Origin: Escherichia coli
GTDB taxonomy: Bacteria > Pseudomonadota > Gammaproteobacteria > Enterobacterales > Enterobacteriaceae
Reading direction: 5' to 3' (one strand)
Assembly: GCF_030013595.1 (NCBI RefSeq)
Contig: NZ_CP122768.1
DNA: 64,000 nucleotides
The position numbers and the translations under genes are program-made. The notes under the pieces were generated by a model. That model saw only the letters and a list, made by a program, of their open reading frames with translations. It did not search any database and was not told the origin of the DNA. Numbering within the stretch: position 1 is the stretch's first letter; each line of letters begins with the position of its first letter. Below are positions 26,687-27,255 of the stretch, in pieces.

Positions 26687-26855
26687 CGTCTTCTTCCTCG
26701 TACATTGAGCTATTCGGATCGCTCATCAGTTCTGCGCAGCAGTGCTCACACACATGAACTTCAAGCACATGCAGCTTCTGACCGCAGTTAGCGCACGTTA
26801 AAGCTCGCTCGACGCTTTCTTTCTGGTATTGAAGGGTTTGGGATGGGCTAAGCAT
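26679..26855 (-). CDS. ninF: NinF-like zinc-binding protein
   Basis: 58 aa from [10 protein letters not shown], CxxC…CxxCC, λ NinF-like. Confidence 0.75.
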   Translation of the reverse strand: MLSPSQTLQYQKESVERALTCANCGQKLHVLEVHVCEHCCAELMSDPNSSMYEEEDDE

Positions 26856-27255
26856 GGCTTTCACCATTAAAAAGTCGCTTGTAAGCATCAATGTCTCGTT
26901 TTGCTTCACCAAGCTTTCGTCTTAATTCCATGTTTTCTGATTCAAGCTTTTCCATGTCTTGCTGGTATCGATCGCGGTGTTCTTTCCATGCTTTTCGATA
27001 CGCCTTCATGTATGTCGTATTGGCCTTTCTCTTTGCCTGACGAACCGCATGGTGGTTTTTCACAAACCAGTCAGGGTCGTTAAATGCTGCTCTGGCGCAT
27101 GTATACCAATAATTTGTTGCCTCCCTGTTTAGCCAATAAATACTGATAAATGGCAACCGGATAGACACCATTTTTCGTTGTGACTCTTTCTCGCCAAACA
27201 TGTGTCCTTTTTTGATGCTAAGGCCAAATCCAGGTTGAATTAAAAGCATTGTCAT
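26848..27255 (-). CDS. hypothetical protein (~135 aa) inserted between ninE and ninF
   Basis: ATG overlaps ninE stop (ATGA); basic/coiled-coil C-terminus; not part of λ nin. Confidence 0.55.

Follow-up and report, generated by a model that had tools for sequence, protein, structure and literature searches.

The open reading frame (ORF) located between ninE and ninF in the lambdoid prophage studied here is, to judge from its sequence conservation, almost certainly a genuine, selectively maintained accessory gene that encodes a protein and belongs to the lambdoid early-right (PR/nin) operon. The ORF lies in a stretch of 64,000 nucleotides of the Escherichia coli contig NZ_CP122768.1 (assembly GCF_030013595.1), which is called the window below. 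Judged from its junctions, it belongs to a set of interchangeable cassettes that would recombine into the arrangement …GAGGAAATGACAATG, cassette, ATGCTTAG…, and its product is predicted to be a basic protein with a small N-terminal domain and a long C-terminal helix. The gene is already catalogued, with records that go back approximately 25 years (to about 2000). The present analysis adds the picture of cassette exchange, more distant phages in which the family occurs, and a description of the structure from which the function can be tested.

Table 1. Positions of the ORF, its predicted segments, its junctions and its neighbors in the window.
Feature	Position	Strand	Remarks
ORF (PHROG 1511 member)	26848–27255	minus	135 codons plus TAG; 133 codons from the second ATG
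N-terminal domain (predicted), residues 1–67	27055–27255	minus	motif D60-P61-x-W63-(F/L)-x-x-N67
Conserved basic helix (predicted), residues 68–89	26989–27054	minus	signature N-x3-(V/I)-R-x-A-(K/R)-(K/R)-K-A
Coiled coil of about five heptads (predicted), residues 90–129	26869–26988	minus	
Left junction, GAGGAAATGACAATG	27247–27261	minus	GAGG 27261–27258; ATGs 27255–27253 and 27249–27247; ninE TGA 27254–27252
Right junction, ATGCTTAG	26848–26855	minus	ninF ATG overlapping the last ORF codons and TAG
ninE	27252–27428	minus	58 codons, directly upstream of the ORF
ninF	26679–26855	minus	58 codons, directly downstream of the ORF
roi	25964–26686		next after ninF

The locus is a lambdoid early-right operon, in which the gene order on the minus strand is O, P, ren, ninB, a Dam-type N6-adenine methyltransferase gene, ninE, the ORF, ninF, roi, an HNH/DUF1364-type gene, rusA, ninH and Q. 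The preliminary description, which was made from the sequence, had reported an extra ORF tightly packed between ninE and ninF, its ATG overlapping the ninE stop codon and its 3′ end overlapping the ninF start. As shown in Table 1, this packing was confirmed, and both the sequence and the ORF list give an intact frame when read from 27255 to 26848 on the minus strand, a strand that the preliminary description had not named. The 3′ overlap is also present: the ORF ends with …CAT GCT TAG, the last base being 26848, and the ninF ATG (26855–26853) and the ORF stop codon (26850–26848) delimit a shared segment of 8 nt, ATGCTTAG. At the 5′ end, the ATG of the ORF and the TGA of ninE form an ATGA overlap as described, although the actual start may be the third codon, which lies past the ninE stop. 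The ninE ATG itself overlaps the stop codon of the Dam-type methyltransferase gene (ATGA, 27425–27428), and the end of ninF overlaps the roi start (26681–26686), a stop/start packing like that at the ORF.

The question of the start codon arises from a second in-frame ATG (Met3) at 27249, six bases after the first one. The Shine-Dalgarno sequence GAGG is separated from the Met3 ATG by eight nucleotides, compared to two nucleotides for the first ATG, the former being the better spacing. RefSeq places the start at Met3 (WP_000924601.1, 133 aa), and the PHROG profile and the N-termini of all the distant relatives described below align at the same residue. The true product may be the protein of 133 residues from Met3, which would begin 2 nt past the ninE stop, without overlap. 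The assignment to Met1 or Met3 is ambiguous, and either start is compatible, in terms of the geometry, with termination-reinitiation coupling to ninE.

The frame is conserved in related prophages. For this comparison, 80 copies were collected, consisting of the window and 79 IMG/VR loci, and the IMG/VR copies all show at least 98% identity. All 33 distinct DNA alleles among the 80 copies have an intact frame with no internal stops; the mean pairwise pS and pN are 0.078 and 0.007, respectively, and the resulting pN/pS of 0.09 indicates that this is a real gene. The opposite reading, in which a chance ORF or a decaying remnant without function lies between ninE and ninF, can draw on damaged copies (truncated, frameshifted or chimeric), which occur in phage H-19B and among the collected proteins (P0058, P0061, P0074 and P0078). 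However, this reading is at odds not only with the pN/pS and the uninterrupted alleles, but also with about 35 distant relatives that keep the full-length frame and the same architecture down to 20–28% identity, and with the confident AF2 fold. We consider it extremely improbable, and a chance or decaying ORF was ruled out by the conservation data.

The gene is widely distributed. The protein is found in 58 GenBank phage records and is carried by 391 of the 5,426 complete E. coli genomes (approximately 7%), including the Stx1 prophage of EDL933. The protein of phage E212 is 100% identical to the ORF product, those of VT1-Sakai (H0039) and several Stx1- and Stx2-converting phages are 98.5% identical, and those of HK629 (gp55), HK630 and mEpX2 are 97.8% identical. 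Orthologues with identities of 83–87% occur in P22-like Salmonella phages, those of Klebsiella and Citrobacter are approximately 70% identical, and the orthologue of Yersinia phage PY54 is 47% identical.

In the PHROG collection, the ORF product gives a full-length match to phrog_1511 ("unknown function") with an E-value of 1.6e-86, where residues 3–135 correspond to positions 1–133 of the 133-position profile. The deposited forms are H0039 of VT1-Sakai (BAB19595), gp55 of HK629 (YP_007111829) and WP_000924601 of RefSeq (EDL933 Stx1 prophage CP-933V). They represent the same gene, with 98–100% identity, the same position between ninE and ninF and the same overlaps, and show no substantive difference from the ORF; all deposited copies are annotated as 'hypothetical protein', with no name or function. 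Among the papers searched, none mentioned these accessions in a phage context, and the literature on ninE, ninF, ninX and the "nin region" gave general descriptions of the region; these descriptions cover only the named genes of lambda and P22, with their characteristic ATGA overlaps (PMC8022706). The ORF sequence is absent from the supplements of the accessory-gene screen of Silas et al. 2023. The preliminary description had left room for a known conserved Nin-region protein; the protein is indeed conserved and has been deposited many times as PHROG 1511, but it has never been named or characterized.

The interval between ninE and ninF differs among lambdoid phages. In lambda, as the preliminary description had stated, the two genes are adjacent; they overlap directly (GTGA) with no gene between them, and the lambda nin region holds no homologue of the ORF. 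In P22, the same interval is filled by NinX (NP_059615; PHROG 444), a protein of 112 aa, compared to 135 aa for the ORF, which likewise has no assigned function. Both ninX and the ORF start in GAGGAAATGACAATG and end in the ATGCTTAG overlap with ninF. The DNA of the window and that of P22 are identical through …CGTGCGAGGAAATGACAATG, and for this reason both proteins begin with MTM; the two sequences then diverge completely and are alignable again exactly at ATGCTTAGCCCATC…, the start of ninF. The shared junctions together with the divergent interiors indicate that the ORF and ninX are alternative cassettes swapped between the same short junctions. NinX was also considered as a homologue of the ORF product and was rejected: BLASTP gave no alignment between the two proteins at E ≤ 100, hhalign of the 42-sequence family profile with NinX gave a probability of 0.2%, and NinX matches phrog_444, not phrog_1511. 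NinX is a positional analogue only. The ORF product, which the preliminary description could not assign to a nin gene, matches no named one: the lambda interval is empty and the P22 occupant unrelated.

A census of the slot was made with 80 IMG/VR loci seeded with NinE. The slot contains NinX in 36 of the 80 loci, the present gene (PHROG 1511) in 14 and no gene, as in lambda, in 12; ninF is missing within 2.5 kb in 17 loci. In the one remaining locus (L172:2638–3624; UViG_3300045988_082572), the slot holds an ORF of 328 aa, which begins with MTM, ends at the ninF overlap and, judged from its sequence motifs, resembles a C5 DNA methyltransferase. With this occupant, the slot has at least four states, namely, empty, NinX, the present gene and a putative methyltransferase.

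Of a second set of 80 loci, which was seeded with the ORF, most have ninE immediately before the gene and an 8-nt overlap with ninF. In eleven of these loci, ninE is not adjacent but lies 1.0–2.5 kb upstream; the gap is 1024 nt in nine of them (L043, L069, L072, L074, L077, L081, L083, L084 and L085) and approximately 2–2.5 kb in two (L068 and L075). The gene still starts with MTM in these loci. In the three that were inspected (L043, L074 and L085), the upstream gene is a ninE variant with an extended C-terminus (…NTRGLTR), followed by approximately 260 nt without a good ORF and by an antirepressor-like ORF of 224 aa before the gene. The same 224-aa ORF is present in L084.

A consensus scan of positions 26400–27700 revealed no promoter-like or terminator-like site, and expression from an own promoter and terminator in the manner of a moron was rejected on this result. 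As the scan gave no such site in the gene or its immediate flanks, the gene would be expressed only when PR is derepressed, that is, in lytic or early growth, as the layout suggests. Where the neighbors of the distant relatives could be read, most of these genes belong to early operons of temperate phages, with repressor/cro on one side and a Q-type antiterminator on the other (L090 and L091). Five of the distant relatives overlap the upstream stop codon by 4 nt; some sit among small ORFs near the terminase and portal genes. Of about 10 independent contexts, 5 contain a methyltransferase gene within one or two genes of the family member. These are the window together with EDL933, where the Dam gene (27425–28012 in the window) is one gene away; PY54 (L002), where a methyltransferase gene lies two genes downstream and a Lar-like restriction-alleviation protein is encoded upstream; L090, where it is adjacent downstream; L092, where it is adjacent upstream; and Tbat2_3 (OL617042), where the distance is again one or two genes. 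HK629 and about half of the close loci carry the gene without Dam, and no methyltransferase gene was found near the family members in L091, L094, L095 and L097. Other neighbors across the phages include Lar-like proteins, N6/N4 methyltransferases, a RecBCD-inhibitor-like protein and NinB. In the survey of the encoding contigs, which included PHROG scans of neighboring genes, methyltransferase, Lar-like and recombination genes recur, and no obligate partner was found. This context is suggestive of a neighborhood of DNA modification or host takeover, which is not obligatory.

The family was extended by a profile search of 1.84 billion representative proteins, which gave 58 matches, including about 35 distant full-length relatives of 123–152 aa with identities of 20–28%. 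Ten of these relatives were scanned against the PHROG profiles; all ten match phrog_1511, and eight also match phrog_8749. The proteins of PHROG 8749 and the unnamed proteins of about 130 aa from diverse temperate phages (P0089–P0129) share with the ORF product the length, the pattern of the N-terminal domain, the DPxW…N…VRxAK(K/R)KA motif, the zipper register and the positive charge, but they are only 20–28% identical to it and are not flanked by ninE and ninF.

The structure of the ORF product was predicted as a monomer by AF2 from a 42-sequence alignment, with a mean pLDDT of 88. The model has strands at residues 3–8, 13–18, 28–33 and 37–42, helices at 44–59 and 61–67, and a single helix from 69 to 130. 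The C-terminal coiled-coil-like segment and the basic character given in the preliminary description are both borne out, the former by this helix and its family-conserved heptad core, and the latter by a calculated pI of 9.9; the C-terminal residues obtained on translation agree with those quoted there. In the ORF product, the 'd' positions are W90, Y97, L104, L111, A118 and Y125, and the 'a' positions are R94, M101, N108, L115, I122 and F129. With the nearly invariant Asn67 as the origin of a gap-free numbering, all 42 members show an identical heptad register, with hydrophobic 'd' positions at N+23, 30, 37, 44, 51 and 58 and 'a' positions at N+27, 34, 41, 48 and 55. Asn is the commonest residue at the 'a' positions N+41 (11 of 42 members) and N+48 (15 of 42). 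According to the rules of coiled coils, Asn at 'a' favors parallel dimers.

The most conserved motif of the family, D-P-x-W-(L/F)-x-x-N-x3-(V/I)-R-x-A-(K/R)-(K/R)-K-A, is located upstream of the zipper. Its V/A/A residues lie on the b/f face of the helix, which presumably packs on the N-terminal domain, and its basic residues are found at g, c, d and e, of which g, d and e face the seam. The net charge is positive in all 42 members, with a median pI of 9.6. The charge is concentrated in the region from N+4 to N+22, and the zipper is neutral; the net charge of this basic segment has a family median of +4 and reaches +7 in residues 71–89 of the ORF product. In 6 of the 42 members, the basic segment is weak, with a net charge of −1 to +1.

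Searches for a known family or fold were carried out at the levels of sequence and structure. In Pfam-A, the only match at E ≤ 0.001 for the ORF protein and the 42 family members was that of one member to Selenoprotein_S, at 7e-4. Nothing came near the cut-offs of NCBIfam, and the PADLOC defense HMMs gave no match, the nearest being LmuB with an E-value of 0.0046 over the coiled coil. A sequence search of the PDB, both with the single protein and with the family profile, gave nothing significant. When the N-terminal domain was compared with AFDB50 using Foldseek, one family member was found (E = 1.4e-7), and the remaining matches were non-significant, the best of them being uncharacterized proteins. 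No DNA-binding family was matched by sequence or fold. Another large search for homologues, again with the family profile, gave no informative fusions or names, only deletion chimeras.

Several copies of the gene are rearranged or damaged. In phage H-19B (L003:2501–2906; AF034975.3 9219–9624), the gene lies, without annotation, in the interval that separates 'nin orf-58-A' from 'nin orf-58-B'; this interval measures 406 nt instead of 405 nt, and tblastn needs two pieces to cover it, which points to a frameshift. This frameshift is either real or a sequencing error of the 1990s. On an E. coli contig of 5.7 Mb, P0074 is an in-frame chimera, in which approximately 54 N-terminal residues of a CII-type regulator (compare cII of the window, 30380–30676) are joined to the half containing the basic helix and the zipper (compare residues 69–135 of the ORF); it is annotated by one source as 'CII family transcriptional regulator' and most likely results from a deletion across O-P-ren-nin in a defective prophage. 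P0085 (144 aa) consists of an N-terminal fragment of a C5 DNA methyltransferase (…DLFSGFGG…PCCQGHS…) and a zipper half of the PY54 type. It represents another deletion chimera, which links the family to a methyltransferase neighbor.

The predicted architecture resembles that of the eukaryotic and viral bZIP transcription factors (GCN4, C/EBP and Fos/Jun) in that a basic helix is continuous with a short zipper, Asn occurs at 'a', and the basic motif stands at a constant distance from the heptads across the family. The idea that the ORF product is a true diverged member of the bZIP superfamily can further refer to N79-x7-R87 of the window protein, which is in the canonical register, to Asn108, which occupies the position of Asn264 in GCN4, and to weak matches to chains of C/EBP, FosB and Nrf2 and to Pfam bZIP_2. 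However, all of these matches are at chance level (E 0.5–2), with bZIP_2 at 2.1 and the C/EBP chains at 0.5–1.5 when the family profile was compared with the PDB, and they appear among generic coiled coils such as GpsB and BST2; in the Pfam scan of the 42 members, no bZIP is among the families listed. Conservation in the family does not extend to N79 and R87, and the conserved Asn of the family is at 'b' instead of 'g', two residues off the register (a-phase of 6 versus 1 in GCN4), and sits at a predicted helix break, and an additional structured N-terminal domain precedes the basic helix. In an hhalign comparison with a seven-sequence bZIP alignment, the zipper was aligned with a probability of 56% and the basic regions were left unaligned. 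Membership in the bZIP superfamily was rejected, as only the zipper aligns and the basic region does not, and we regard it as very improbable. The remaining link to bZIP proteins would be a functional analogy, consisting of a basic helix in a fixed phase with a predicted dimeric zipper.

The mechanism that we tentatively favor is that of a nucleic-acid-binding coiled-coil dimer of early lytic growth. Ribosomes coming off ninE would read the gene, either by termination-reinitiation or with the aid of the GAGG upstream of Met3. The predicted product would have a small N-terminal domain of four strands plus helix, followed by a continuous helix of approximately 60 residues, in which the first 20 or so residues are basic and the last 35 or so form a zipper of five heptads, often with Asn at 'a'. 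Such a protein would form a parallel homodimer, the oligomeric state being predicted from the heptad composition, in which the basic helices are held in a fixed register with the zipper and may be braced by the N-terminal domains on the V/A/A face. The binding partner of the paired basic helices would be a polyanion, most likely DNA of the phage or the host and possibly RNA, and the protein would act as a non-essential modulator of DNA transactions in early lytic growth. Lambda lacks the gene and other phages carry unrelated cassettes in its place, which indicates that it is dispensable; this fits many accessory functions. A bolder form of the same idea, which we consider unlikely, is that PHROG 1511 and 8749 represent an unrecognized class of phage DNA-binding proteins, in which a bZIP-like solution was reached independently, the basic helix is pre-organized by a beta/alpha N-terminal domain of novel fold, and the protein regulates or protects DNA when Stx-converting and other lambdoid phages begin lytic growth.

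The partner of a basic coiled-coil protein could just as well be an acidic protein, and the main rival to the nucleic-acid-binding dimer is a host-takeover or counter-defense factor, in which the dimer and the N-terminal domain inhibit or redirect a protein of the host or of a competitor phage, with the basic patch on an acidic protein surface. This is possible but rather doubtful. It agrees with the position in a hyper-variable slot, in which a putative DNA methyltransferase is among the other cassettes, with neighbors that act in host takeover or DNA modification (Dam, Lar-like, N6/N4 methyltransferases, RecBCD-inhibitor-like and NinB), with the dispensability of a gene that is missing from lambda and P22, and with an N-terminal fold without relatives, as is typical of fast-evolving counter-defense proteins. 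However, there is no PADLOC match and no entry in the supplements of Silas et al. 2023, a net positive charge is kept by about 40 highly diverged members, a pattern seen more typically in nucleic-acid binders than in target-specific inhibitors, and the pN/pS of 0.09 reflects strong conservation instead of the diversification of an arms race. It is less probable still that the protein is a partner or regulator of a neighboring DNA methyltransferase or restriction-alleviation module, for example, in the targeting or timing of phage DNA methylation. The recurrence of a methyltransferase gene within one or two genes and the putative C5 methyltransferase found in the same slot of one locus would fit such a role, but the gene occurs without Dam in HK629 and about half of the close loci and without a nearby methyltransferase in the four loci named above, and methyltransferases are common in the early regions of phages, so that the background is high.

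Further observations concern the prophage at large. The genes of tRNA-Thr (TGT) and tRNA-Asn (GTT) are located on the minus strand at 24080–24235 of the window, just downstream of Q (24510–25133). In Stx phages, tRNA and toxin genes are found at this position downstream of Q. A match to the Rfam family Lambda_thermo, the cIII thermoregulator, at 34440–34498 on the plus strand (88.5 bits) marks the PL operon, on the strand opposite to the nin region. When positions 20000–34000 of the window (14 kb) were compared with the complete E. coli genomes in the collection, none of them matched more than 61% in one place, although the individual pieces were frequent. The mosaic that these widespread modules form in the prophage had not been seen before.

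As a discovery, the finding is ordinary, since a hypothetical gene that was already annotated was correctly spotted. The gene is nevertheless present in approximately 7% of the complete E. coli genomes, its carriers including O157:H7 prophages that convert to Stx1 and Stx2 production, and has no name, Pfam family or recognizable fold relative. The precise exchange of cassettes between ninE and ninF provides a clean example of lambdoid mosaicism at gene boundaries. A functional assignment would close one of the gaps left in the lambdoid early operon, which affects replication, recombination and the time at which Shiga toxin is expressed.
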